Positions 1-59,726 of a DNA stretch of 64,000 nt are shown here, piece by piece; within the stretch, counting starts at the first letter, position 1, and each line of letters opens with the position of its first letter. A program made the translations under genes and the position numbers. Below the pieces are notes generated by a model, which saw only the letters and a program-made list of their open reading frames with translations, was not told where the DNA came from and searched no databases. Location: assembly GCF_006345805.1 (NCBI RefSeq), contig NC_043004.1, positions 3,472,001 to 3,536,000 of the forward strand, given 5' to 3'. The stretch is from Octopus sinensis (Eukaryota).

Positions 1-386
1 TCGCCCGGCGTGCTAACAATTTACCAGCTCGCGGTAATCTGTGTATATTAAATGGGATCTACCCCTCACTGGATAGAATACCTTTTTTTTGTTTATCCCA
101 CAAACTGTAAACTATCTATGAGCAACCAACCCTATTCTCATAACGCAACTGTTCATACACACCGCGTTCGACACCGTATTCTGCACTCTATCAACCCATT
201 TCTTTAGAAAAAAGTTTGGCGTCGTTGGTTTTTTTTAGTCCCCTCCACCACCACCTTATTTCTTTACTCATTCTCTAGCGTTTCATTCTAATTTTTTTCC
301 ATTTCTCTTAGCTTTTGGTCATTTCGCGGTCGATACCAGTCGATGTAGTTTACTAGCATCTCTCAAATGAACGGTTATTTTTATAT

Positions 387-424
387 GCGCAGGAGTGGCT
401 GTGTGGTAAGTAGCTTGTCTAACC
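387..424 (+). mobile_element. 5' head (A-box part) of tRNA-derived SINE family B, interrupted by the LINE
   Basis: GCGCAGGAGTGGCTGTGTGGTAAG matches the start of the uninterrupted copy at 10863. Confidence 0.85.
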
Positions 425-811
425 TCACTGACAGAAGAGTGACTTTGCTTACCGTACTACGGTTTGGACGCGTTTTCTTCCCGGTAAGAGTTTTGCTGTG
501 TTGTTAATTGTTGAATTCCTACTACTGAAAATGTGCCTTTAAACGTTGCTGAACTGTCTTGTTCTCCGGTTTTACCGGGAAACAATTGAATAATTTCTTA
601 CCGTTGAACTGTTAGCCATTGTGGCTTTTTATTTACGTGACTATATATAGTCCTGCCAGACTATTTTCGTGCCCCTCCCCCGAATGGGGGGGGGAATTGG
701 AATTTTGAACTGCTTTTTTGAACTACTTTGGAAGAAAACTTTCTATAGGTTTCCCAGTTTTGTGGGAAACCAATATTCGTAATTTTTGTATTGTCTAATT
801 TCAACAGAATA

Positions 812-2214
812 ATGTCTGTTGAAATTATTCACGAAAGTAGTGCTCTTGGGGAGAGCAATGTTAAAAAATTTTCTGCAGTAGCCGCAGTGGCTACCGAGAA
901 CATTGACATCGATGTCAATCAGCTCGTCGAGCTATTTAAAAGAATGCAAGAGGAGGGTGGGGATGTTAAAATATCACCCTCCGCCAGTATCGTAGAGACC
1001 GAGAAGCGGACCGTAGTGTTTAAAACTTTCTGTCCACAAAGCAGAACGTTCAAACACTTTGAAAAAAAGCACCATCGAGAAATGCCTGTCCCCGATTTGG
1101 AAGGACATCGTGTACGTCACCAGGGGACGGGCGCATGGCACTGTGGATGTCCGCTTCACGGGGGAAGAAATGGCCCGCGGGCATTCTGTGAACCCCCTAA
1201 AAACCAAGGAGGTGGTACTTTTCCCAAGCTATAGAGGACGCAGGACGTCCCGGGTCAGGATTGTAGAAGCCCCGCCGGAAGTAGATCCGGTAGAGGTAGT
1301 GGCCGCCCTGTTATATAAAAGGGCGGACAAAATAAAAATACTTCAAGTAACATGCTCTACCCCCCTATTTTGGCTCGGGCGTAACATTAATATATTAATT
1401 CAAGGAACAGCGGAGGACCTGCAGCTCCTTCCTGAGAGGGTGCTCGTGGGCGAGAACGTAGCCCTCAGGGTACAGGTCGAAGGCCGAAAACCCACCTGTT
1501 ACGCCTGCGGCAAAAAGGGCCACATTCGTGTAGACTGTCCAGACAAGCAAAAGAAACCGCAGACACCAGGCCCCTCAGATAATAAAAAAGTCCCTACCCT
1601 TGCAAACACACCTACCCCTACAAAAACAAAAAATCCCACTCCTGCTGTTACGGTGCCAACCCCAAAACAGACTGAAGAAAAAACCCAGCCCTCGCACCAC
1701 AAACCCCTACACTATTAAAACCTCCCACCCCCTAAAAACTGCGGCGCCTACCGAACAAACTATTGCTACCCCAGACGATACCATGGAGGTATCAGAGGGG
1801 GGATTTACACCAGTTCGTAAAAGAATTCGTGCAGCATCCCCGTCCACATCCCCTACAAAAAATAATAAAAACAAGACACACCACAGACACGAAAAAAAAA
1901 ATCCCGCTCAACTGGCCCAGAAAAAGAAGACAAAAAAAGAAAATGAACTCATATTAATTGAATTCGACACACAAGACAAATACATAAACGATATTGTGGT
2001 TCAGCATCAGTCAGCAAGACTGTACAACAAATACAAAGATCGAAATAGACACGCGTGGATTGCGGAAACAACGTTCAAACAATTAAAAGACAGACACCCA
2101 AACGCCATCCGGCATATCGCGAACTTGCCGGACTATCTGAAGAAAGAGGAGAAAGAAGGGGCCCACAAACGTGTGGTGAGGTCGGCCCCCACCTCTCCAA
2201 CGAAATGTAAGTAG
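812..2214 (+). pseudogene. Tx1 ORF1 (gag-like nucleic-acid-binding protein), split over three frames
   Basis: ORF pieces 791-1234, 1059-1718 and 1600-2214. Zinc knuckle CYACGKKGHIRVDC. Aligns by eye to ORF1 of the second LINE (KTFC/KTYC, GTVDVRFT/GTVEVRFT, RTSR, EGRKP). Confidence 0.85.
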
Positions 2215-2231
2215 AACTTTTACTTTTTGTA

Positions 2232-5200
2232 ATGGCTTCGCTTAACCTTGGTTGTTTAAATGTGCGTGGTCTGAGTTCGAAGTGGAAGCAGGCTTGTTTC
2301 CTCGACGACCTCAGATCACATGATATACATGTGATGGTTGCTACAGAGACCAAGCTGGACAGCCTACAAACCTTCTCGCCTCTCCTGAATGGCTACGAGA
2401 AAATCATGTCTCCTAGCCAGACCGGAGGGCGAGGGGGCGTAGTGGTACTGATCCGTAAAGACTTGGCTCTACAGACAAGTACAGTCTATGTAGACCCAGA
2501 AGGTGGGCTGGTCGTCCTTGATGTGACATACAGCAGTAAGGCCTTCAGGTTGATCGGACTCTATGCACCTTGTGCTAGAGGTTTCCAAACTGATTTTTAT
2601 CGGCGCCTAGAGGGCTTTCTCGTGACGTCGAAGACTTTAGTGATATTAGGGGACTTTAATGCTATCGTTGACTACACATCGATAGCGTTGGCTCGATCTA
2701 TAGGAAAGTGAACTCACGTCTCGTGGATCTGCTTAAGCGGTTTCAGCTGGCAGATCGTTACAGACTTGACCATCCGAACGTCCCAGAGTGGACCTGGATG
2801 AGTGGCGACGGAAGGTTCAAGTCTTATCTAGACAGGATAGTGATAAGAACTAGAGATAAGTCTAGTTTTAGTTGTCCACAGCTCGTCCAGGTGCCCTATA
2901 CTGACCATAGAATGGTCACGTGTAGACTGGACATAGATAGCACACTTAAGATAGGAACCGGCTACTGGAAGCTGAACAAGTCTACTTTGACACGCGAGGC
3001 ATACCGTAGCCGGATTAAGGTGTTAGTGCAGAGGGCGTTAACCGGAGCCGTGGTTAATAACCGGTGGTGGTTCACCCTCAAAAGAGCCATTCGATTCGAG
3101 TCCATTAGATTTAATAAACAACTAAGACTAGATAGGGCTAGAATAGAAGGGCAACTAGTTAAGAACTTAGAGGAGGCGTTGAGGTTGGGCTCTGCATCTC
3201 ACATTTTAGCGGCGAGAACGGCATTAGACCGTCACCTCAAAACCAAACATGAGGGATGTAGAGTCCGGGCTAAAGTACGAGCATTGGGCCGTGAGGGAAT
3301 TAATGTTGCCGGATGGGCCCGTACGATAGAAACACAGCGTGGAAACGATGCCACAATTGGGTCTCTTGTTGATGAAAACGGATGCACGATAAAGAAGCGG
3401 GACGAGATGTGTGAGGCACTTCACAAGCACTTCGCCGAGTTGTTCGGGAGGTGCGGGACGCTGGATCATGGTGAGGCCCTTAGGGACTTCCTGTCTGGTG
3501 GCCCGCGCCTCTCGACACGAGAGGCTGAGTGCTGTGAAGGGCCAATCACAGCCGAGGAAGTAATCGAGGTGTTGGGCAAGTGCCCCGGGGAGAAGTCACC
3601 GGGTCTCGATGGTCTGCCCTATGAATTTTATAGAAGTATGCCAGACTTGTTCGAGCACCTGCTGGCTAGCGTCTACGCCAACTGGCAGCAGAATGGGAGA
3701 ATTCCCAAGTCTGCGAGCCGGGGGGCGGTGACGTTGATCAGGAAGGACCCGAACAAGGGGGACGAGATAGGGAATTCAGGCCCATAACTCTGTTAAACAC
3801 AGAGTTAAAGATTCTGGCCAAGGTGCTAGCAAAAAGGTTGGCGCGGGTCGTGGACAAACTTGTCGGGGAAGCGCAAACGTGCGCTATCCCCGGCAGAACG
3901 ATCCACGACAATCTCCACCTTATACGCTACTCCTTAGAGAGGGTGGGGAAGCTTTCTGGCGCAGGGGGAGCACTGGTACATTTAGACCAGTCCAAAGCAT
4001 TTGATAGGGTCGACCATCGGTACCTGGCGGCGGTCCTCGGAGAGGCTGGCCTAGGCCCGACCTTTCGAGGTTGGATCGCTGCTTTGTGTAGCGACATCGA
4101 GTCTGTAGTCAAGGTGAACGGTTCCTTTTCGAAGCCGTTCAGGATCGAGCGTTCAGTTCGTCAAGGATGTCCCCTGTCCTCGCTCCTATACGTATTGGCT
4201 CTTGAGCCTTTGCTGCGGAAGTTGGAGGCACTAGGGGGCGCGCCGCATGATCTATGGTGTGGAAGAGGAGCTACGGCGTATGCGGATGACACCTCCATCA
4301 TCGTGGCAGACGAAGGCCAGCTTCCAGTGGTGGAAGAGGCCATCAAAAGCTACGAGGCGGTGGCAGGAGCAAAGGTTAACAAGGACAAGTCGGTCGGTTT
4401 GCAACTCGGCACCTGGAGGGGCAAGCCGATGCCGTCCAATAACGTCGTAGGGCGTTGGACGGAAGGTCCTGTTAAGCTGCTCGGAGTCTGGTTCGGGCCA
4501 GACCTCCAGATTGAGAAAAATTGGAGTGAGGTGGCCAACAAGGTGACCGCTCTAACCCAGACCTGGTCTGGGCGGGCGTTATCCCTGCTAGGGAAGGCGG
4601 AGGTGGTGCAGATGTTTATAGCATCAGTAATCACCTACCGTCTGACCGTGGTGCCTTGCCCCGATTTGTGGCTGAACAAGTTGGAGAGAATCCTTTTCCG
4701 ATTTTTGTGGAAAGGAGGAAAGCCACTTGTAAAGCGCTCTGTCTGCTGCCAGAAACTGCTAAAGGGTGGGCTAGGGATGCCTTGGCTGAGGATGCGAAAA
4801 CTCGCGTTAAGGTTGAGGCACCTCTGGCTTTACCTGGATGGAGAGCAGGTGTGGTCACCGCACGTCCGGTTCTACCTTCCCCAGTTAACATCCCTAACGG
4901 ACATCGGTGCATGGATCAAGCGGAGACCTAAACTGAGTGAATGGCATTTGGAGTGCCGTCAGGCGCTCCAGCTACTATCTCGGGTGGGTAACGCCGGCAA
5001 CAGGAGTTCCACCACGGATTTCTATAGCGGGTTAGTGGAGATTAAGTCCGAAGACGCCTTGGGGGAGACCCTGGGCTACGATGAAAATCAGTTGGTCAAC
5101 CTGTTCCGGAGGACGTTCGGGCCGGGGTATCTGGATAATTACCAGAAATCCCTGACCTGGCAGTGTTTCCGTGCGGCTTTACCTGTTCGCGACAAGCTGT

Positions 5201-5631
5201 CAAGGCACGGTAGTGCCGTCTCGCCGACATGCCCGCGATGTGAGCAGGATAGGGAGACCGTCTTGCACGCATTCGTGGAGTGTCCGGAGTTATCGGGACT
5301 GATAGCTTTTGTTGAACAACTGTTGTCAGTGATGGGAAGAGTACAGCTATCAGCTGAGTCTATCATCGAGATTGTGCCGCCCCCTTTCCTTAACAGGGAA
5401 AGAAAGGCTTGTTTTTTCTGTGTAGTAGCCATACTGAAAGAAACAGTATGGAAGACGCGTACGAAAGGTATAGTGACAGGCACCTTTATCTCCGGCCAGG
5501 GGTTGATTAACTTTTTTAGTTACCACCTCAGTAGCAAAATCAGGCTGGAGAAGAGGTGTCTGTCACGAGATATGTTTGTGAAAAGATGGAAGCCTGTGGC
5601 ATACAAGATGGGTATGTTTGGCACCAGGTAA
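2232..5631 (+). pseudogene. Tx1 ORF2 (APE endonuclease + reverse transcriptase + zinc finger), two frameshifts
   Basis: EN motifs LNVRGL, ATET, GDFN, YLDRI, TDH. RT motifs KSPGLDG, DQSKAFD, RQGCPLS, YADD. C-terminal CPRC..ETVLH..C. Frame breaks near 2675-2710 and 3775-3790. Confidence 0.92.
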
Positions 5632-5859
5632 GTGTGACCGGATCAGAAAGTAAAGGTTCTACCCGGATGGCTGGGTGTCCGTCCTTCGACATGATCATTA
5701 ATATTTTTAAACATTGCCTTCGTAAAATTCATTGTTTATAATCTTATCCGTAATTTCATTCGAAAATTGTAACTGTGTTAAGCTACTTCACCCTTTATAT
5801 TTGTCTGTCCTTGTTTGTCCCCTCTTTGTAAATGCCTAAATGGCAAATTATATGAAATA

Positions 5860-6000
5860 AAGTAGTTTGCTTACCAACCACATGGTTTTGGGTTCAGTCC
5901 CACTGCGTGACACCGTGGGCAGGTGTCTTCTACTATAGCCTCGGGCCGACCAAAGAGTGAATTTGGTAGAGAGAAACTGAAAGACGTCCGTCGTATATAT
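5860..6000 (+). mobile_element. Continuation of the interrupted SINE family B copy
   Basis: CCAACCACATGGTTTTGGGTTCAGTCCCACTGCG... continues the family B sequence seen at 10890-11030. Confidence 0.85.
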
Positions 6001-6169
6001 ATATATATTTGACTGCGGCCATGCTGGAGCACCGCCTTTAGTCGAACAAATGGACCCCAGAACTTATTCTTTGTAAGCGTAGTAGTTATTCTATTGGCCT
6101 CTTTTGCCGAACCACTAATCGCTTTACTAATTCTTCCACGTAAAGTCAGGCGAAATACCGCTTAGCATT

Positions 6170-6482
6170 TCGCCCGGCGTGCTAACAATTTACCAGCTCG
6201 CGGTAATCTGTGTATATTAAATGGGATCTACCCCTCACTGGATAGAATACCTTTTTTTGTTTATCCCACAAACTGTAAACTATCTATGAGCAACCAACCC
6301 TATTCTCATAACGCAACTGTTCATACACACCGCGTTCGACACCGTATTCTGCACTCTATCAACCCATTTCTTTAGAAAAAAGTTTGGAGTCGTTGGTTTT
6401 TTTTAGTCCCCTCCACCACCACCTTATTTCTTTACTCATTCTCTAGCGTTTCATTCTAATTTTTTTTCCCTTTCTTTTAGCT
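6170..6482 (+). repeat. Near-identical direct repeat of window positions 1-~310
   Basis: TCGCCCGGCGTGCTAACAATTTACC...TTTCATTCTAATTTTTTTCC occurs at both places, differing in homopolymer length and about one substitution. Confidence 0.9.
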
Positions 6483-10862: not shown

Positions 10863-10864
<2 letters not shown>

Positions 10865-11021
10865 CGCAGGAGTGACTGTGTGGTAAGAAGCTTGCTTCCC
10901 AATCACATGGTTCCGGGTTCAGTCCCACTGCGTAGCACCTTGGGCAAGTGTCTTCTATACCCGCGGGCCGACAAAGACCTTGTGCGTGGATTTGGTAGAC
11001 GGAAACTGAAAGAAGCCCGTC

Positions 11022-11069
<48 letters not shown>

Positions 11070-11268
11070 TTGTGTGTCTGTGTTTCTCCCATCACCATCA
11101 CGTGACAACTGATGCTGGTGTGTTTACGTCCCCGTAACTTAGCGGTTCGACAAGAGACCGATAGAATAGTTCCTAGGCTTACAAAGAATAAGTCTTGGCA
11201 TCGATTGGTTCGACTAAAGGCTGTGCTCCAGCATGGCCGCAGTCAAATGGCTGAAACAAGTAAAAGGA
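10863..11268 (+). mobile_element. tRNA-derived SINE family B, uninterrupted copy with internal (TA)n
   Basis: A-box-like TGACTGTGTGG and B-box-like GGGTTCAGTCC. Homologous copies at 30816, 57590, and on the minus strand at 22915-23390, 32770-33025 and 62165-62315. Confidence 0.85.
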
Positions 11269-13908: not shown

Positions 13909-13971
13909 GGCGGCGAGCTGGCAGAAACGTTAGCGCGCCGGACGAAATGCTGAGCGGTATTTCGTCTGTCG
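13909..13971 (+). mobile_element. 5' head of tRNA-derived SINE family A, interrupted by the LINE
   Basis: GGCGGCGAGCTGGCAGAAACGTTAGC...GAAATGCTGAGCGGTATTTCGTCTGTCG matches uninterrupted heads at 24340, 27839 and 62365. Confidence 0.9.
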
Positions 13972-14134
13972 CACATGTGTTCGTGAAGTAAGAATTGCTG
14001 TTTCGTGGTGTTAATATTGTTAACAACTGTTGTTTCTTGTTAAACTGTTGAATAACTTAACTGTTGGAGTTTTCAATTGAAAACACTTAGTGCTTGTGGT
14101 AGCACGCGTTGTTCATTCCCCTTTGGGGGGAAGA

Positions 14135-15663
14135 ATGTCGTCTAGCATGGAGCCTACCGTTGGAGCAGAAATACTTGTTTCTCCTGTTGAGAGGAGGAAA
14201 TACATGTCCGGCGAGGAGCCAACTACAGACAAGGAAATAGGGGTTTCCCCCGCTACAAGAAGGAATAGCAGAGAGGATAATATATTTGATATTTTTGGAG
14301 ATGTGTCTGAGAGCTCGTCAGAACTTTCACCAGAAGAGTTTCCGACTTTGCCAGAGAACAAAGGCATTGTGTCGAAGAGAATAATTGATGTGCCTAGCAT
14401 CCAGATAGAACCAAAAAAAGGAAAAAAAAGTTTTGCGTTGGCTGCTGGGGGTGGAACCCAGATACTGTCGACGAATAAAAGCGAAATTATGAAATACAGC
14501 AAAATGATGGAAATAAATGACAACAGTGTGAAAATTGAACCTCCGCAAAAGTTATTACAGGAAGAAAAGCAAAAAACAATAATTTTCAAAACATATTGTC
14601 TACAAAATAGAAAAATTGAAAGAATGTCAGAAGAGAAAATAGAAAAGTGCTTAAAGCCAATATTGGGCGACGTAGTATTTCTGAGAAGAGGAAAAAAATT
14701 CGGAACGGTGGAAGTAAGGTTCACCAATAAAGAAATAGCACACAAGAACTCAGTGGAAACGTTGAAAACGAACGACGTGGAGTTAATACCCTATTATATG
14801 GGGATGAGGACGTCGCGAATAAAAATTACAAGGGTCCCGCCAGAGGTCGAACCTATGTGGTTGTTGGCGGCAGTCCTAATCAAAGAGGTAGAAAAAATTA
14901 CTCTCCTCCAGGCTACCGCTACGGAAAACCCACGCTGGGATGGTAAAACATTAATCTTCTCATTCAAGCGGACCCTAAAATAATTCAAACAATTCCTGAG
15001 ACAATTGAGGTAGGGGAGGAGAACCTCGTGGTGTTTGTTGAGGGCCGAAAACCTCGATGTTTTTTATGTGGTCAATTAGGCCACATTCGAAGGAACTGCA
15101 AGGAAAATGAAGAAGAGGAGGAAGAGGAGAAAAAAGACAAAGAGGAAGAAGATAAAGAAGAAACAGATGAGAAAAAAACAACAAACAAAAGAAAAATACA
15201 ACCAGCAACCCAGCCGAGAGCGGCGACTACTACAGAACAACGACCAAAAAAGACTGCCAGAAGAGAAAAAGAAGAAAAAGGCATAATAGCCGTATACACT
15301 AAAGATACTGAGCTCATGAGAGACATTCAACTCATAAAGACTGTAAAAAAAATTGATAACCTTTCAGAGGAATTTATCAATTACGACATATATGAAGTCT
15401 CAAATAAGACTTATAGAATTCTACAAAATAAGTACAGAAAGACTGTATCTTCATTGAGATTAGATTTTAACAAGTCGATATTTCATGGATTACCAGCTCC
15501 GATCCCGCGAGAAAAGGAAAAGGTGGAGATTCCCCCTCCACCTGATAATTCTGTGTCGGTGGTGAGACGGGATTTTGACAAATCTATTTCCCAAGACCGT
15601 CCACCTCCGACCCTGGATAAAAAAAAGGTGGAGGGTCCCCCTCCACCGGACAATCCTAATTAA
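14135..15663 (+). pseudogene. Tx1 ORF1 with one frameshift near 14960
   Basis: ORFs 14090-14983 and 15028-15663. Zinc knuckle CFLCGQLGHIRRNC, acidic linker, Pro-rich C-terminal repeats. Confidence 0.85.
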
Positions 15664-15671
15664 ACAGGTAA

Positions 15672-18600
15672 GTGATGGCTATTCACATTGGTTGTTTAAA
15701 TGTTCATGGCCTGTTGTCAAGCTGGAAGCAAGGACGCTTTCTGAATGACATCAGGTCGAGAAATTTGGATGTAATTGTTGCAACGGAAACCCGGGTGAAG
15801 GGGCCAAGAGATCTGCTCCCCCTCCTGAACGGCTACGAGAAATACGTTTCTCCGAGTCGGGCGGGAGGTGGGGGTGGGGTGTTGGTCCTACTAAAAAGAA
15901 ACCGGGTAGCCGAGAAAAAGTTGGTTTTTTCTGACCCAGAAGGCAGGCTGGTCGTTCTCGACTTGACATTCAGTTGTGGCAAGACAATCAGGCTGGTCGC
16001 TATTTATGCACCAAACATTATTGGCCCGCAAACTGAATATTTTCGTGGCCTAGGAAAGTTCCTAGCCACGTCGCATTCACTAGTAGTGTTAGGAGACTCT
16101 AATACAATATGTGCAGCACACACAGATTGTGTTGGCTCAAACTCGAACATGAACAGAAAATGTAACACAGGCTTTCGGGATCTGCTAAGTCAATTTCAGC
16201 TAGCAGATCCATATAGGTTGGAGCACCCGAACACTCCACAGTGGACGTGGTCAAATAGTGACGGGTCTACCAGAACATATCTAGATAGGATTTTAATTAG
16301 AGAAAAAGATAAGTCCATAGTTGAGTGTCCACAGTTTTTTCTAGTCAGCTACAGTGACCACAAGATGGTTACCTGTAAACTGACGGTAGATAAGTTGCAT
16401 AGACAGGGATCTGGCTACTGGAAACTCAATACGTCCCTTTTGGCGATTGAGGAGTACAGAAAGCGGATCAAGATGTTAATACAGAGGGCATTAACAGGTA
16501 CCATCATTAATAACAAATGGTGGTACGCCCTAAAAAGAGCCATCAAATATGAGTCTATTAGGTTTAGCATAAGTTTAGCTAAGAAGGGACGTAAAATAGG
16601 AGATGGTCTAGTTAAGGAACTAGAAGAAGCCTGGAGGACTGGTAATACAGACCAAGCGAGGGTGAAAAGACTGGAGTTAAACCAGCATCTTGAAGCCCAC
16701 CACATGGGAAGTATTACCAGAGCTAAGTTACGTGCAATGGGAAGTGAAGGAATCAAAGCCGCTGGATGGGCCCGAGTGGTGGAAGCTCGGCAAGGAAATA
16801 GTTCCTCTATTCGGTCTTTGACGAATCAAAATGGTGTCTTGATAAACGAACCCGAGAAAATGTGTGAGGTCTTTCGGGAGTACTTCGCCCAGCTGTTCGG
16901 GGGTGACGGCGGTCCTGGTGGTGGGAGAGCCCTCGAGGACTTTCTTACCGGGCTGCCGTGCCTCTCGGGGTCGGATGCGGAGTCTTGCGAAGGGCCAATC
17001 ACACTTGAGGAGGTGATGGAGGCTTTGGCCGATTGTAAAGCGGGTAAGTCACCGGGACTTGATGGTCTTCCGTACGAGCTGTATAAATGTATGCCAGACT
17101 TGTTCGGGCAACTACTGACTGACGTGTACGCGAACTGGAAACAGAATGGGTTTATCCCCAGATCTGTGCGCCGGGGAGTAGTGACGTTGGTCAGAAAGGA
17201 CCCGGACAAGGGGGACGTTCTAGAGAATTTCAGGCCCATCACTCTGTTAAACGCAGAAGTGAAGATTTTGGCCAAGGTTCTAGCAAAAAGGTTGGCGCGT
17301 GTCGCGAATGGTATAGTCGGGGAGGCACAGACATGTGCCATCCCAGGCAGAACCATTCAGGATACCCTCCATCTTATTCGCTATACCATAGAGAGGTTTG
17401 GTAATAAATCTGGCAAAGGTGGGGCATTGGTGCATTTGGACCAGTCTAAAGCTTTTGATAGGGTTGACCATCGATACCTAGCGACTGTACTTGCGCGGTT
17501 TGGCCTGGGCCTTGGCTTCCTCAGGTGGTTTATCGCTTTGTACCACAACATTGACTCGATAGTTCGGGTGAACGGTTTCCTTTCGAAGCCGTTCTGCATC
17601 AGACGCTCGGTTCGTCAAGGATGTCCGCTTTCACCACTTTTGTATGTGATGGCTCTCGAGCCATTACTGCAAAGGTTGAGTGGCATCCCGAGAGAACCAG
17701 GACTAGAGGAGTTTGTTACGGCTTTCGCGGATGATATCACTATCAGTGTAACCACAGTGGTACGCCTACGTGAAGTAGGTAAGACTATTGAGGCTTACGA
17801 GGAGGTAGCAGGAGCAAAGATTAACCGGGAAAAGTCGGTCGGCTTGCAGCTCGGCACCTGGGTTGGCAAGTCGATGCCTTCAGACAGTGTTGTTAGGCGC
17901 TGGACGGAGGGACCGGTTAAGTTGCTGGGAGTCTGGTTTGGACCAGGCCTCCAGATAGAGAAGAACTGGACGGAGGTATTGAGCAGGGTGGCTGCAGTAG
18001 TCAAGACTTGGTCTTGGCGGTGGCTATCCCTGAAAGGGAGGGCGGAAGTGGCCAATGTGTTTATCGCATCGGTCATTACCTACCGCCTGACTGTCGTGCC
18101 CTGTCCGGATTCGTGGTTGATCAGGTTGGAGAGACAGCTCTTTCGCTTTTTGTGGAAGGGCAGGTCGCCACTTGTGAAACGCTCTGTCTGCTGTCAAAAG
18201 CCTTTAAATGGAGGTTTAGGGATGCCTTGGTTAATGATGCGCAGACATGCGTTGAGGTTGAGGCACCTCTGGATTCTCCTGGATAGTGAACGGGTGTGGT
18301 CTCCGCTGGCCAGACAAATGTTCCCTGAGTTCAAGAGTTTTTGCGAACAGGAAGCCTGGTGTTCTCGTAGACCGAGGTCGAGTGAGTGGCATAAAGAGTG
18401 CCGTAAGGCCCTCTTGCTGTTCCGGCGCTCGGGCAACGCCAGCGGTGGGGGTTCCACACGGATTTTATATAGTGGGTTGGTAGAGTCTGAATGCGACGAT
18501 GGCCTGGGGTCGACTCTAGGTCTCGGATTTATTCAACTGGACAGCTTGTTTCATCGTACATTCGGGTTGAGAACGTTGGACAACTTCCAAAAGTCCTTAA

Positions 18601-19076
18601 CCTGGCAATGCTACAGAGGTGCCTTGCCCGTTTGGGATAAGCTCGCAAGACATGGTAAACGTCAGTCGCCGACCTGTCCAAGATGCGGTGGGGACAGGGA
18701 AACCGTCCCTCACGCTATTGTTCAGTGTCCGGAGATAACTGAAATGTGGGCTTATGCTGAACATCTGTTGTCCGGCGAAGGAAGAGTACGGCTGTCGACT
18801 GAGTCAATTATAAAAATTGACCCACCGGGAGTTCTAACGAACGAAGGTAAGAATTGTTTTCTCACGGTTGTAGCAATAGCAAAAGAGGCTGTATGGAATA
18901 CTAGGATAAAAGGAATTAAGACAGGCAACTTTATCTCTGGTGACAATTTACGATCCTTTTTTTCTTTTCATTTGAAAAGGAAACTGTGGCTGGAGAAGAG
19001 GTGTCTGTCAGAGTGTACGTTCCAAAAGAGATGGAAGTATGTTGCACGAGTGTTGTGCGTGCAAGGAACCGTGTGA
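15672..19076 (+). CDS. Tx1 ORF2: APE endonuclease-reverse transcriptase, 1134 aa, uninterrupted
   Basis: LNVHGL, ATET, GDSN, YLDRI, SDH; KSPGLDG, FRPITLLN, DQSKAFD, RQGCPLSP, FADD; CPRC..ETVPH..C. Confidence 0.95.
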   Translation: MMAIHIGCLNVHGLLSSWKQGRFLNDIRSRNLDVIVATETRVKGPRDLLPLLNGYEKYVSPSRAGGGGGVLVLLKRNRVAEKKLVFSDPEGRLVVLDLTFSCGKTIRLVAIYAPNIIGPQTEYFRGLGKFLATSHSLVVLGDSNTICAAHTDCVGSNSNMNRKCNTGFRDLLSQFQLADPYRLEHPNTPQWTWSNSDGSTRTYLDRILIREKDKSIVECPQFFLVSYSDHKMVTCKLTVDKLHRQGSGYWKLNTSLLAIEEYRKRIKMLIQRALTGTIINNKWWYALKRAIKYESIRFSISLAKKGRKIGDGLVKELEEAWRTGNTDQARVKRLELNQHLEAHHMGSITRAKLRAMGSEGIKAAGWARVVEARQGNSSSIRSLTNQNGVLINEPEKMCEVFREYFAQLFGGDGGPGGGRALEDFLTGLPCLSGSDAESCEGPITLEEVMEALADCKAGKSPGLDGLPYELYKCMPDLFGQLLTDVYANWKQNGFIPRSVRRGVVTLVRKDPDKGDVLENFRPITLLNAEVKILAKVLAKRLARVANGIVGEAQTCAIPGRTIQDTLHLIRYTIERFGNKSGKGGALVHLDQSKAFDRVDHRYLATVLARFGLGLGFLRWFIALYHNIDSIVRVNGFLSKPFCIRRSVRQGCPLSPLLYVMALEPLLQRLSGIPREPGLEEFVTAFADDITISVTTVVRLREVGKTIEAYEEVAGAKINREKSVGLQLGTWVGKSMPSDSVVRRWTEGPVKLLGVWFGPGLQIEKNWTEVLSRVAAVVKTWSWRWLSLKGRAEVANVFIASVITYRLTVVPCPDSWLIRLERQLFRFLWKGRSPLVKRSVCCQKPLNGGLGMPWLMMRRHALRLRHLWILLDSERVWSPLARQMFPEFKSFCEQEAWCSRRPRSSEWHKECRKALLLFRRSGNASGGGSTRILYSGLVESECDDGLGSTLGLGFIQLDSLFHRTFGLRTLDNFQKSLTWQCYRGALPVWDKLARHGKRQSPTCPRCGGDRETVPHAIVQCPEITEMWAYAEHLLSGEGRVRLSTESIIKIDPPGVLTNEGKNCFLTVVAIAKEAVWNTRIKGIKTGNFISGDNLRSFFSFHLKRKLWLEKRCLSECTFQKRWKYVARVLCVQGTV

Positions 19077-19325
19077 ATAGACGAGGAAAAAAAAAAAAAA
19101 AGGAAAAATAAAAAGGTATCAGCGGTAGATCGGGGCTTGTGGGATCGGAGCGTAACTTGATCATCGCTTCATTTGTATTGTTTTTGTACTGTGTATTCCA
19201 TTCGATTTTTATGTATTGTATTTTATTTTTGATGTCACATTTATGTAAAATCATATCGATTCACTGATCCCATCAGTTGTACTGTCCATATCTATGTTTG
19301 GCCCCCGGTGGGCAATAAAGAAATT

Positions 19326-20005
19326 GGTATTTCGTCTGCCGTTACGTTCTCAGTTCAAATTCCGCCGAGGTCGACTTTGCCTTTCATTCTTTCGGGGTCG
19401 ATAAATTAAGTACCAGTTACGCACTGGGGTCGATGTAATCGACTTAATACCTACGTCTGTCCTTGTTTGTCCCCTCTATGTTTAGCCCCTTGTGGGTAAT
19501 AAAGAAATAGGTATTTCGCCTGTCTTTACGTTCTCAGTTCGAATTCCGTCGAAGTCGACTTTGCCTTTCATCCTTTCGGGGTCGATAAATTAAGTACCAG
19601 TTACGCACTGGGGTCGATGTAATCGACTTAATACCTACGTCTGTCCTTGTTTATCCCCTCTATGTTTAGCCCCTTGTGGGTAATAAAGAAATAGGTATTT
19701 CGCCTGTCTTTACGTTCTCAGTTCGAATTCCGTCGAAGTCGACTTTGCCTTTCATCCTTTCGGGGTCGATAAATTAAGTACCAGTTACGCACTGGGGTCG
19801 ATGTAATCGACTTAATACCTACGTCTGTCTTTGTTTGTCCCCTCTATGTTTAGCCCCTTGTGGGTAATAAAGAAATAGGTATTTCGCCTGTCGTTACGTT
19901 CTCAGTTCGAATTCCGTCGAAGTCGACTTTGCCTTTCATCCTTTCGGGGTCGATGAATTACGTACCAGTTGCATACTGAGGTCGATCTAACCGACTTGCC
20001 CCCGA
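19326..20005 (+). repeat. Tandem array of SINE family A: three 184-bp units plus the remainder of the host SINE
   Basis: Units start at GGTATTTCG at 19326, 19510, 19694 and 19878. Each full unit ends in AATAAAGAAATA. Confidence 0.92.
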
Positions 20006-21584: not shown

Positions 21585-23078
21585 TCATACACACACACAC
21601 ACACACAATCAACAAACAACCAAACAACCAAACAATCCTTTGATAATATCAACGAAAGTTTGTTCTATTTCTTCCACAATTGTTTCTCTAGATTTATGAG
21701 ATTTATGCTATTCTATGATTCCTGTTAATTTTCCGACATTATTTGGCGTTGCCTTTCAAATTCTTTGCGCTTGTTTTTTTTTTCTTGTTTTTTTTTTTTT
21801 TTTTGTATATTGTTTTGCTTTGTTTTATTTCGGGATGTGTGTTTTTTTTTTGTAATTTGCTAGGAATTATCTTGCATATTTATTGCAAAATTAGGACGGA
21901 ATATAATGGAAAATCGCTATCAAAACTTCGGATTAATTTGAGCAGAGAATATGATATCTACCAATGTGATGTTTGCCATGAGGTTTTCTGCTCTTATTGT
22001 TTTCACATCTCTGTCGATCGGTGTCACGTGTATTACCTTGTAGTTAACCCTTAGAAAACGGAATTGGTTTCCTTCAAACCAACGAATGGATCTAAACATC
22101 TTGGTTGTACGAAAAATTTCTTTCATTCATATTTCCTACACTCTTTCTCTTTTACTTGTTTCACTCATTTGACTGCGGCCGTGCTGGAGCACCGCCTTTA
22201 GTCGAAGAAATCGAACCCCAGGACTTATTCTTTGTAAGCCTAGTACTTATTCTATCGGTCTCTTTTGCCAAACCGCTAAGTTACAGGGACGCAAACACAC
22301 CAGCATCGGTTGTCAAGCGATGTTGGGGGACAAACACACACACACACACACACACACAATCAACAAACAACCAAACAACCAAACAATCCTTTGATAATAT
22401 CAACGAAAGTTTGTTCTATTTCTTCCACAATTGTTTCTCTAGATTTATGAGATTTATGCTATTCTATGATTCCTGTTAATTTTCCGACATTATTTGGCGT
22501 TGCCTTTCAAATTCTTTGCGCTTGTTTTTTTTTCTTGTTTTTTTTTTTTTTTGTATATTGTTTTGCTTTGTTTTATTTCGGGATGTGTGTTTTTTTTTTG
22601 TAATTTGCTAGGAATTATCTTGCATATTTATTGCAAAATTAGGACGGAATATAATGGAAAATCGCTATCAAAACTTCGGATTAATTTGAGCAGAGAATAT
22701 GATATCTACCAATGTGATGTTTGCCATGAGGTTTTCTGCTCTTATTGTTTTCACATCTCTGTCGATCGGTGTCACGTGTATTACCTTGTAGTTAACCCTT
22801 AGAAAACGGAATTGGTTTCCTTCAAACCAACGAATGGATCTAAACATCTTGGTTGTACGAAAAATTTCTTTCATTCATATTTCCTACACTCTTTCTCTTT
22901 TACTTGTTTCACTCATTTGACTGCGGCCGTGCTGGAGCACCGCCTTTAGTCGAAGAAATCGAACCCCAGGACTTATTCTTTGTAAGCCTAGTACTTATTC
23001 TATCGGTCTCTTTTGCCAAACCGCTAAGTTACAGGGACGCAAACACACCAGCATCGGTTGTCAAGCGATGTTGGGGGA

Positions 23079-23085
<7 letters not shown>
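21585..23085 (+). repeat. Tandem duplication of ~750 bp with breakpoints in (CA)n
   Basis: Identical ORF translations 748 bp apart (21920/22668, 22105/22853). Each unit includes a SINE B 3' fragment. Confidence 0.9.
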
Positions 23086-23115
<30 letters not shown>

Positions 23116-30815: not shown

Positions 30816-31230
30816 GGCGTACGGGTGGCTGTGTGGTAAGAAGCTGTGTGCTTCCCAACCACATGGTTCTGGGTTTTAGTCCCACTGCATGGCACCTTGG
30901 ACAAGTGTTTTCTACTACAACCTCGGGTCCACTAAATCCTTGTGAGTGGATTTTGTAGATGGAAACTGAAAGAAGCCCGTCGTATATATATGTGTGTGTA
31001 TGTATGTAGGTAGGTAGGTAGGTATTTGTGTGCCTGTGTTTGCTCCTGCCACCATCGCTTCACAACCGATGTTGGTGTGTTTACGTTCACGTAACCTAGC
31101 AGTTCGGTAAAAGAGTCCGATAGAATAAGTACAAGGCTTACAAAGAATAAGTCTTGGGTTCGATTTCGTTCGATTGAAGGCGGTGCTCCAGCTTGGCCGC
31201 AGTCAAATCACTGAAACCAAGTAAAAGATT
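30816..31230 (+). mobile_element. SINE family B copy
   Basis: Colinear with 10863-11268. Confidence 0.85.
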
Positions 31231-45504: not shown

Positions 45505-46672
45505 ATAACTTAGAAAGGTTTTGGCCAGTATTGGCCCAGGCCATGTCTAACTTAATAGCACCACCTGGCGAAGTCTTTCAATTCAGGATTTGGGCACCAA
45601 GGCCCATTCGAGCAGAGAGTTATTGTTTGCGGAGACATATCCGGGTGTGGGTGGTTTGTCCGGGACTGTTTGAAGGAATTTGTCCAACGATTTCTTGAAT
45701 TTTGTGTGGTCAGTTTCTGTTTTGACGTGTCCTAGTGTAATGTTGAAGAGAGCGGGCCCAATTGAGGTGAAATAATTGTCGTTATGTCATATTGTCGTTA
45801 TGTGATGCGATTTGGATTTTTGTTGTGGACGGATGGCACGTGGTCCAAGCCTTGGATGTATTTTGAAGGTGATGCCAACATCATTTGGACAGTGCTGATG
45901 GAATATTTTCCACATCATACAGATAATGTAGCGTTCACGGCGTCGTTGGAGTGAATACAGTTTCAGCTTCTCTAGTCTACCCCAGTAGTCAAGGTTTGAC
46001 ATGCCATCTATCTTTTTTGTGATTGACCTTTGGGGAGCTTCAATTGTCATAATATTTTGTTTTGTGTAGGGAGACCACAGTGGACAGCAGTATTCAAGGT
46101 GGGATCGGGCAAAAGTGGAGAACAGAAGGATAATAGTGTGGGAATCTCTTGACTGGAAGGTTCTGAGAATCCAGGAACACATTCTGCGGGCCATGTCAAC
46201 TTTGCTGCTTATATGTGTAGCCCAGCTTATGTTGTTGTCCACTGTTACTCCCAAGTCTCTGATGTTGTTGGACGCCATGATAATTTCTCCAGAAGGAAGG
46301 GAGTATGGGAGTTTCAGAGCGTCCTCCCTTCCAAAGTGGATCAGTTCGAATTTGTCTTCGTTTAGCAACATGTTGTTCTTTTCCGCCCATTGGACAACAG
46401 CCAGTAGGTCTGACTGAAGGCTTATTCGGTCATCCACGCCATTGATGACCTTCTGGAGCTTGGTGTCATCAGTGAAGGTTCTGATGTTACTACGTTTGAT
46501 GGTGTCAGTAATATCATTTATGTAGATGATGAAGAGAAGTGGGCCCAACACAGTGCCTTGTGGGACACCACTGCTGACTTTAGCTGGGCTGGATTTGACT
46601 CCTTCGACTACAACATGTTGGGTTCTGTTAGACAGGAAGCACTTGATCCACTGCAGCAGCTTTCCAGTGACA
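45505..46672 (-). mobile_element. 5'-truncated CR1/L2-group LINE (RT + 3' UTR)
   Basis: ORF 45787-46689: SGVPQGTVLGPLLF, FTDDTKL, RDLGV, HLEYC, LYSLQRRRER. 3' end CTTTCTAAGTTAT lies in a TA-rich microsatellite. Confidence 0.9.
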
Positions 46673-46784
46673 TGTATGTGTATATACATGTATATATATA
46701 TATATGATATATATATATGTATGTATATATGTATGTGTATATATATATATGTTATATATATAATTATATTATATATATGTAGTG

Positions 46785-59014: not shown

Positions 59015-59690
59015 AAGTTAATGTGGCTCAAAAGCAATAGCAAGGCCATGTAGGGGGACATGGAGTTAAGTACAGGGTGGTGTTCATGTAAAGAGTTCAG
59101 GCCACTTGAGGTCCAGGGAGACTTTGAACAAAGCGGTCGTCGGCATCTTCACCATCTCGTCTGGCAGCTTGTTCCACGGATCCGCAAACGGACGGAGAAA
59201 GCTCCTCTCCCTTCGATTTGGATGTAATCGTCGCAGGTAGAGCTTTTCGGAAGACCCCGCAGCCGACGCTCTGGAGCAGGAGTGAAGAACAGCTCTTTCG
59301 AGAGGTTACACTTTCCGCTTATGATGTTGTGGGCGAGAATGAGATCACCACGGCGGCGGCGTTTTTCTAGAGAATAAAGGTCGAGCGTTCTCAGCCTTTC
59401 TTCATAGGACAAATTTTTGAGACCATGAAACATGCGGGTAGTCAGCTTCTGGACTCTTTCGAGATGATGTATGTCTTTGAGGTGATAAGGAGAAGAGGCT
59501 TGAATCCCGTACTCCAATATGGGTCCCACCAGCGTGACATAGAGTGGTAGGAATATGGCTGCTGTGAGCATTCCGAATGACTGTCGAATCAAGAACAGAA
59601 CTCCGCGTGCTTTGTTGGCAGCATGGACACACTGGGCCGAAGGCGAAAAGGAGGAATCCACAAGATACCCAGGTCCTTTACCTGATCGGT
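58925..59690 (-). mobile_element. 5'-truncated CR1-like LINE with (TAAC)n 3' tail
   Basis: LYVTLVGPILEYG, LERVQK..TR, LSYEERL, YSLEKRRRRGDLI. (GTTA)n at 58925-59020. Confidence 0.85.
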
Positions 59691-59726
59691 CCTCTCCAGC
59701 AGCAGACGAAAAATAACACATATATC

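Follow-up and report, generated by a model that had tools for sequence, protein, structure and literature searches.

Several LINEs of the Tx1 clade insert into other transposons. The available portions of two accounts (PMC4494074, PMC6719617) place Xenopus Tx1 in Tx1D, crocodilian Tx1-Mar in Mariner-N4_AMi, Tx1-9_AMi in Harbinger, and Tx1-8_Crp and Tx1-4_AMi in LTR elements. The octopus LINE described here (family 1) resembles the target-specific Tx1 elements of those portions in that it is an APE-RT element with a multicopy repeat as its fixed target, has sister families that have changed targets, microsatellites among them, and shares its site with non-autonomous passengers. It departs from the target lists given there in that its target is a tRNA-derived SINE, and also differs in the single-base fidelity of more than 90% of its copies and in bearing a complement of the target in its tail, a feature that the same text does not mention. 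No report of a SINE as the target of a Tx1-clade element was found in the literature searched.

The window is a stretch of 64,000 nucleotides of the Octopus sinensis genome, and all features given below lie on its plus strand. The 5' part of a tRNA-derived SINE B head (386..407, with the A box at 396-406; its top alignment among 28 sampled tRNA sequences is to tRNA-Lys) is followed by a 17-nt copy of the target site (408..424), the family-1 LINE (425-5859), a 16-nt site copy that is the true local target (5860..5875), and the remainder of SINE B (5876..6008), with the B box at 5891-5901 and (TA)n at its end. The LINE comprises a 5' UTR (425..811), in which a second target-like 11-mer lies at 443-453, ORF1 with a CCHC zinc knuckle (812..2211), ORF2 with an APE endonuclease, a reverse transcriptase and a C-terminal zinc finger (2232..5631), and a 3' UTR with a 9-nt stretch (5780..5788) that is the complement of target-site bases 1-9. 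Both ORFs are frameshifted in the window copy. The element closes with a terminal 4-bp stem-loop and a fixed 3' end without poly(A) (5833..5859), and its sole AATAAA (5856-5861) straddles the LINE/SINE junction. The split of SINE B between 424 and 5860 that had been predicted originally is real: the two site copies read as described, and the uninterrupted SINE B copies at 10863..11083 and 30816..31000 both align across it. These two empty copies have A at site base 4 and are not the preferred target of family 1. The window also holds a LINE of a sister lineage, family 2, within SINE A (13969..19325), flanked by a 13-nt duplication (13956-13968 and 19326-19338).

The original prediction had turned on whether other family-1 copies are enriched at the same SINE B position, and they are. 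Genome-wide, 82 of 90 family-1 3' ends join SINE B directly at the single base just 3' of the A box, a further five adjoin the same site beside another element, and three are off target. Insertion of family 1 is site-specific, the 82 of 90 exceeding the 20% of flanks that serves as the threshold for specificity towards a multicopy repeat in the available text of PMC4494074. Exact empty SINE B sites number 58,934. Insertion could instead be random, the pattern arising because SINEs are abundant or because copies in harmless sites survive selectively; SINEs do account for about 12% of the sequence in an Octopus vulgaris genome, according to the portion available of PMC13282606. Even assuming 500,000 sites, however, chance would place 0.008 of 90 ends at that one base and in that orientation, against the 82 observed; this reading is refuted, and we give it practically no weight.

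Other features of the copies bear the marks of target-primed insertion, namely a fixed 3' end, variable 5' truncation and target duplication. All 30 5' ends recovered with a search query lacking SINE sequence adjoin the site. Among 22 5'-incomplete copies, the SINE head lies immediately upstream in 10 and is absent at the visible boundary in nine; 5'-shortened copies as small as 25 nt retain both head and site. One truncated copy (L172) joins at the internal target-like motif of the 5' UTR (443-453). Among related tails, the site hexamer follows 839 of 1,037 tail motifs, many of them on ORF1-only elements. Spread of a single SINE::LINE composite as a unit after one ancestral insertion would suit the heads of full-length copies, which are somewhat less diverged than empty SINEs (5.7% vs 9.5%, p 0.07). 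Against this, the SINE halves are about fourfold more divergent than the LINE (median pairwise divergence 10%, vs 2.7% for the LINE 3' end, in 400 pairs from 67 loci), one base is common to 22 tail clusters, and there are truncated copies with locus-specific duplications (for example L167 and L174). Because of the truncated copies and the fourfold divergence we regard hitchhiking as excluded, with a very small residual probability. Family-1 copies are independent insertions into one site in one orientation.

The junction on the 5' side was originally read as part of an imperfect 16-17-bp target-site duplication. Both copies do have the sequences then given, but the 5' copy is mostly not a duplication of the target. 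A perfect 16-nt duplication is present in 18 of 47 paired full-length loci. In 25 of the 47 the target lacks the element-type final five bases, and among these the 5' copy ends in element-type sequence in 23 and equals the target in two. Departures within site bases 1-7 are confined to the 3' copy in seven cases and to the 5' copy in none, with one shared (p 0.016). The 5' site copy is overwritten by element-type sequence, and the apparent imperfect duplication is mostly a target copy carried by the element; in the window, this copy is unlike the local target and was likely templated by element RNA. Where both site copies come from the target, the duplication is 16 nt. Leader types were considered as inherited lineages, but on the copy tree they show no clustering (21 changes vs a shuffle mean of 21.1), a tree in which 31 of 54 inner branches are open; for a leader reaching into the SINE head, p was 0.07. 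No Rfam match pointed to an HDV-like ribozyme at the element 5' end, and a single loose descriptor match was at chance level, being equalled by 24 of 100 shuffles. Contigs of four presumed-RNA runs span this stretch of the window, two of them crossing the head-LINE junction; the contigs show no start.

Open frames are found in copy L131, with an ORF1 of 467 aa and an ORF2 of 1130 aa. The nearest solved structure to ORF2 in the PDB is human L1 ORF2p (E 3e-65, residues 6-867), and profile matches above cut-off are PF03372, PF00078 and PF13966; the order of N-terminal APE endonuclease, reverse transcriptase and C-terminal zinc finger is that of the L1 group. The ORF1 zinc knuckle matches PF00098 (24.8 bits vs a cut-off of 20.8). 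A CCHC zinc knuckle in ORF1 is typical of the Tx1 clade, whose named elements include Tx1L, Keno, Kibi and Koshi. The Tx1 label appears to fit the family-1 architecture, the relatives in our trees all being unnamed. Families 1 and 2 are sisters (99/99), with ORF2 proteins 59% identical. A first tree had placed one long, 24%-filled row among family 1; the final tree, without that row and two other distant rows, gave the same result. Family 2 lies in SINE A in 30 of 30 cases, so that related lineages have, as was proposed, moved onto different tRNA-derived SINE heads. The endonuclease has diverged more than the reverse transcriptase (52% vs 69% identity between the families), and the loop equivalent to the L1 minor-groove hairpin has three of nine residues in common. 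A third relative sits in a (TATC)n microsatellite. A mismatch-pattern search of the SINE A site for further families returned mostly a SINE A variant with a one-base deletion; of five candidates retrieved, one was family 2 and none was a new LINE.

Short elements sharing a terminal motif with the autonomous family were also found. With both junctions visible, 23 of 24 such elements (1.5-2.4 kb) have ORF1 and lack ORF2. They resemble HAL1 (half-L1), as described in the available text of PMC5753468, in being non-autonomous derivatives that encode ORF1p only; unlike HAL1 they have a specific site, and between their ORF1 and that of family 1 identity is only 25%.

The two SINE targets had also suggested a general preference for Pol III internal promoters, with both families in an equivalent interval between A and B boxes. 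Both cuts do fall between the boxes, but the bases are not homologous: in SINE B the family-1 cut lies 1 nt from the A box and 31 nt from the B box, and in SINE A the family-2 cut lies 25 nt from the A box and 26 nt from the B box. Ty1, Ty3 and Dictyostelium elements integrate beside tRNA genes through tethering to Pol III factors. Tethering by TFIIIC or TFIIIB on the SINE promoters would suit the similar distances to the B box and the excess reuse of occupied sites, 9 of 60 loci adjoining another element (p 6e-4 vs an assumed 4%). Family-1 insertion is nevertheless base-exact and selects a SINE subtype by one base; it proceeds at five loci where an earlier element displaced the A box (L124, L129, L140, L145 and L160), and at L149 the element entered a similar-looking site that is not a SINE, leaving a clean duplication of 16 nt. 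Whether real tRNA genes are hit as well had been raised; no interrupted tRNA gene was seen among 280 loci and 60 rejoined empty sites, with the tRNA set of the genome sampled by 46 matches. The non-homologous cuts, the lack of an interrupted tRNA gene in this sample and the (TATC)n relative favor recognition of sequence, and we consider tethering improbable.

The one-base preference is mirrored in the element. Site base 4 is T in 81 of 90 family-1 insertions and A in one. The complementary 9-mer of the tail varies together with the SINE subtype that is hit: tabulated against site base 4, counts were 40/0/4/16 for 60 tails and 17/0/0/5 for 22 clusters, the four exceptions being A-variant tails on A-type sites that they do not match. 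In an unselected test, of the 20 copies of a family with the T-variant tail, 19 occupied A-type sites and none a T-type site. The five tail clusters of mismatch type may belong to a single clade, and the covariation could stem from the age of the SINE subtypes. Such a history is part of an explanation to which we give slightly less than an even chance, in which the endonuclease alone selects the site and the tail complement merely folds onto read-through RNA, as an end-processing or RT-recognition stem, covarying because older families met an older SINE subtype. The 9-mer does pair with the read-through sequence in minimum-energy and centroid folds (the 3' end plus read-through folds overall no better than shuffles, z -1.2), A-type SINE bodies at L381-L400 appear by eye to be more diverged, and family 2 is as specific without a complement, target complementarity in family 2 and the SINE A tail being not above shuffles. 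In the other direction, ORF1-only elements, which have no endonuclease, likewise sort by SINE B subtype, and the 9-mer is maintained both at about 42 nt and at about 79 nt from the end.

We consider it probable that family 1 is a sequence-specific, Tx1-like element of the L1 group whose copies were likely installed at a single SINE B base when target-primed reverse transcription followed a nick by its own endonuclease, likely with help from target sequence in its RNA. The APE domain would nick the bottom strand immediately 3' to the A box and the top strand 16 nt beyond. The transcript likely ends within the downstream SINE, because the only AATAAA straddles the junction, and the read-through could pair with two partners, the primer strand and the tail 9-mer. 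It would begin within the 5' site copy, so that the cDNA end could anneal to the upstream target, by analogy with R2 that retains upstream 28S sequence; there, the text available proposes that annealing of target sequence at the 5' end of the RNA makes the 5' junctions uniform (PMC3774820). R2 differs in its restriction-like endonuclease and in its HDV-like ribozyme, no ribozyme above chance having been found in the octopus element. R1Bm and SART1Bm are also APE-type site-specific LINEs, for which annealing of target-like RNA to the nicked strand has been proposed; as far as the available account goes, they are R1-clade elements of rDNA or telomeres, unlike family 1, and their motifs are sense matches to the target, the octopus 9-mer being antisense (PMC7265360). 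The ORF1-only elements would use ORF2p in trans. A fuller form of RNA-assisted targeting is possible but doubtful: element RNA would hold both strands of the landing site, as sense read-through and 9-nt antisense tail, and swap them with the nicked DNA, enzyme-less passengers would select their SINE subtype by pairing under a common ORF2p, and the lineage would have shifted from a microsatellite onto two SINEs.

With its 59,000 or more copies, SINE B offers a landing site that renews itself and does no harm, a renewable safe harbor for a community of LINEs and half-LINEs, each insertion into which parts the SINE A box from its B box. With SINE B, SINE A and microsatellite targets and a one-base subtype switch, these close relatives form a natural series in which the gain or change of APE-type specificity, by protein loop or RNA pairing, is directly testable. 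If RNA pairing contributes, the system would be relevant to programmable gene insertion.

The SINE B of the window is split around the LINE as the original prediction described. The head (386-407, A box at 396-406) is followed by a 17-nt 5' site copy (408-424), the 5,435-bp family-1 LINE (425-5859), a 16-nt 3' site copy (5860-5875) and the SINE B body, with a B box at 5891-5901, all as read from the sequence. Among 28 tRNA sequences, tRNA-Lys gave the best alignment to the head. The family-1 ORF1 carries a zinc knuckle and ORF2 an APE endonuclease, a reverse transcriptase (RT) and a zinc finger; both frames are broken in the window copy and both are open in the copy at L131. Of named homologues, the closest belongs to Argonauta hians, with 64% across the RT region, so that an octopus host is likely. 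A 630-bp segment comprising the SINE B 3' half and ~480 bp of flank is duplicated just upstream of the window at 97.3% (window 1-313 and 6170-6482; fetched locus L001:761-1389). There, a site variant identical to 5860-5875 is placed behind a partial head; thus the head at 386 and the body at 5876 likely belong together, short of proof. Elsewhere in the window, ~750 bp are duplicated in tandem almost exactly at 21900-23100, with a SINE of a third type in the repeat (22167 and 22915), and other RT-like reading-frame fragments, unrelated to family 1, lie at 45787-46689 and 59149-59721 (both minus strand).

Searching the 2.72-Gb genome with a 5' query free of SINE sequence yielded 40 scored matches; the 30 that were fetched all abut the site. 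Family-1 3' ends were collected with an exact 22-nt terminal pattern; this favours young copies, and figures for the 90 ends found, all with inspected flanks, describe those rather than the fidelity of old ones. The SINE B body followed directly in 82. In five the site was followed by the 5' end of another element, four of these matching ORF1-only families known at the site; one end lay at a look-alike non-SINE site and two at unrelated sequence. Exact empty sites number 58,934 genome-wide; even on a generous assumption of 500,000, chance would place 0.008 of the 90 ends at the site, versus the 82 observed. With this flank survey, it is almost certain that family-1 targeting is real and strongly site-specific. 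A boundary was visible in 22 5'-incomplete copies: the SINE head lay directly upstream in 10, nine had no head at the boundary and three were off-target; median pairwise divergence was 2.7% for the LINE end versus 10% for the SINE half. Truncated copies that retain a head, and the more diverged SINE half, exclude a SINE B plus LINE composite spreading as a unit.

Other elements use the same base. A degenerate tail motif had 1,037 matches, with the site hexamer next in 839 (counted by pattern match). Of the first 100 matches listed, 14 were exceptions: eight mutated SINE B sites, one site plus another element, one reversed SINE B head and four non-SINE sequences. At L265 one tail abuts a SINE B head that runs the opposite way; the site is near-palindromic. 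Where both junctions of short elements were visible, 23 of 24 had ORF1 without ORF2, as described for HAL1 (PMC5753468). Family 1 has another element next to it at the site in nine of 60 loci (L124, L129, L131, L132, L140, L141, L145, L150, L160), above an assumed 4% occupancy; these are possible hot loci.

Full-length copies with both ends numbered 52; five whose 3' side was another element or rearranged were dropped, leaving 47. The 16-nt duplication was perfect in 18. In 25 the last five bases of the target were not element-type, and here the 5' copy was element-type in 23 and equal to the target in two. Departures at site bases 1-7 affected the 3' copy only in seven cases, the 5' copy only in none and both in one (p 0.016). 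The 5' copy was 17 nt long in 21 of the 47, more commonly on mismatched targets (p 0.04); an ORF1-only element at L224 also has a 17-nt 5' site copy, like many family-1 copies. Element-type 5' copies on mismatched targets indicate that the element, not the target, usually supplies the sequence of the 5' copy. Thus the predicted imperfect 16-17-bp TSD does have two copies, but mostly is not a true duplication. The element RNA would then start within the site copy, and the cDNA made from it would anneal to the target upstream; target sequence on the RNA is postulated to act in this way in R2 (PMC3774820). Family-1 RNA probably carries a 5' leader of target sequence. Counted against such a leader are the scatter of its variants on a mostly unresolved copy tree (21 changes versus a shuffle mean of 21.1) and the failure to find a ribozyme at the family-1 5' end.

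Window positions 5780-5788, in the 3' UTR, are the reverse complement of the first nine site bases. A 9-nt match to the 5' copy was reached by 3 of 300 shuffles; against the locus's own mutated 3' copy, the exact match was 6, not above shuffles. This tail 9-mer and the read-through pair in both predicted folds, with an overall z of only -1.2. With no poly(A) in the element and a sole AATAAA that spans the LINE-SINE junction, the transcript likely ends inside the downstream SINE. Of 80 tails, 14 that were off-site or truncated and six without the motif were set aside. In the remaining 60, the counts of tail base against site base 4, which separates T- and A-type SINE B, were 40/0/4/16 (17/0/0/5 over 22 clusters), the A-type loci having been preselected for that base; four tails break the rule. 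In an unselected test, all 20 copies of one T-variant family lay in SINE B, with A at site base 4 in 19 and T in none; the 90 family-1 ends had T in 81 and A in one. SINE subtype age is a confounder of this covariation, and the five mismatch-type clusters may be one clade. No complement to its site was found in the family-2 tail. We consider it rather unlikely that RNA pairing helps to choose the insertion site.

Family 2 (13969-19325, within SINE A) was sampled as 362 candidates, 40 scored and 30 fetched; all 30 end at one base of SINE A. Its cut lies 47 nt into SINE A, 25 nt past the A box and 26 ahead of the B box, and that of family 1 lies 22 nt into SINE B, 1 nt past the A box and 31 ahead of the B box. 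Both cuts therefore fall between the boxes, as predicted, but not at an equivalent base. The two sites have only GGTA in common, with cuts ~3 nt apart relative to it; in SINE A it sits in a second A-box-like stretch, by a weak alignment. The SINE A at 19326-19997 has a tail resembling those of these LINEs, 26 nt being identical to family 1's. SINE A also occurs in 184-bp tandem arrays whose junctions fall at the family-2 site, and the ends of several copies lie a few bases inside that site, as expected from read-through. A tree of 421 C-terminal ORF2 columns pairs family 2 with the SINE B families as sister groups (99/99) and places a third family outside them; it has no sure root and gives no direction of target switches. 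The idea of related lineages on different SINE heads is thereby upheld. By eye, TATC-like repeats follow the end of the third family at all 30 loci and precede it at 16 of 29, the 12 nt of repeat in the query being a small bias toward such flanks. This older relative, ~20% diverged between copies, thus occupies (TATC)n microsatellites (L322:92-1631, minus strand; L351-L380).

Families 1 and 2 are 52% identical in the endonuclease, 69% in the RT and 44% in the linker. The loop aligned with the L1 minor-groove hairpin, whose exchange changes nicking (PMC1950540), has 3 of 9 residues in common. The endonuclease is likely the main reader of the site. The alternative is tethering to Pol III; a general preference for Pol III internal promoters had been suggested. 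Against it, insertions occur where the A box is displaced, a look-alike non-SINE site is used, and a choice is made between SINE B subtypes. Nor were real tRNA genes found to be hit: ARAGORN found no interrupted tRNA gene in 280 loci and no tRNA gene in 60 rejoined empty sites, the genome's own tRNA set being covered as a sample. Its one tRNA gene, a tRNA-Ser at L139:5700-5782, lies ~15 bp from a broken family-1 5' end on the opposite strand. Together these argue for insertion by sequence reading.

Targets described for the Tx1 clade in the sources consulted are piggyBac, Mariner, Harbinger and LTR elements, U2, U5, 5S, satellites and microsatellites (PMC4494074, PMC6719617, PMC4640811). A 2026 Octopus vulgaris annotation has 13 recently active L1-Tx1 families, its main text being silent on targets (PMC13282606). 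No LINE targeting a SINE was found in the literature covered, which lies outside Repbase Reports and most subscription journals. Against that literature, the tail complement of the site is a new RNA feature among target-specific elements of a known kind, and SINEs are a new target class for target-specific LINEs of a known kind.
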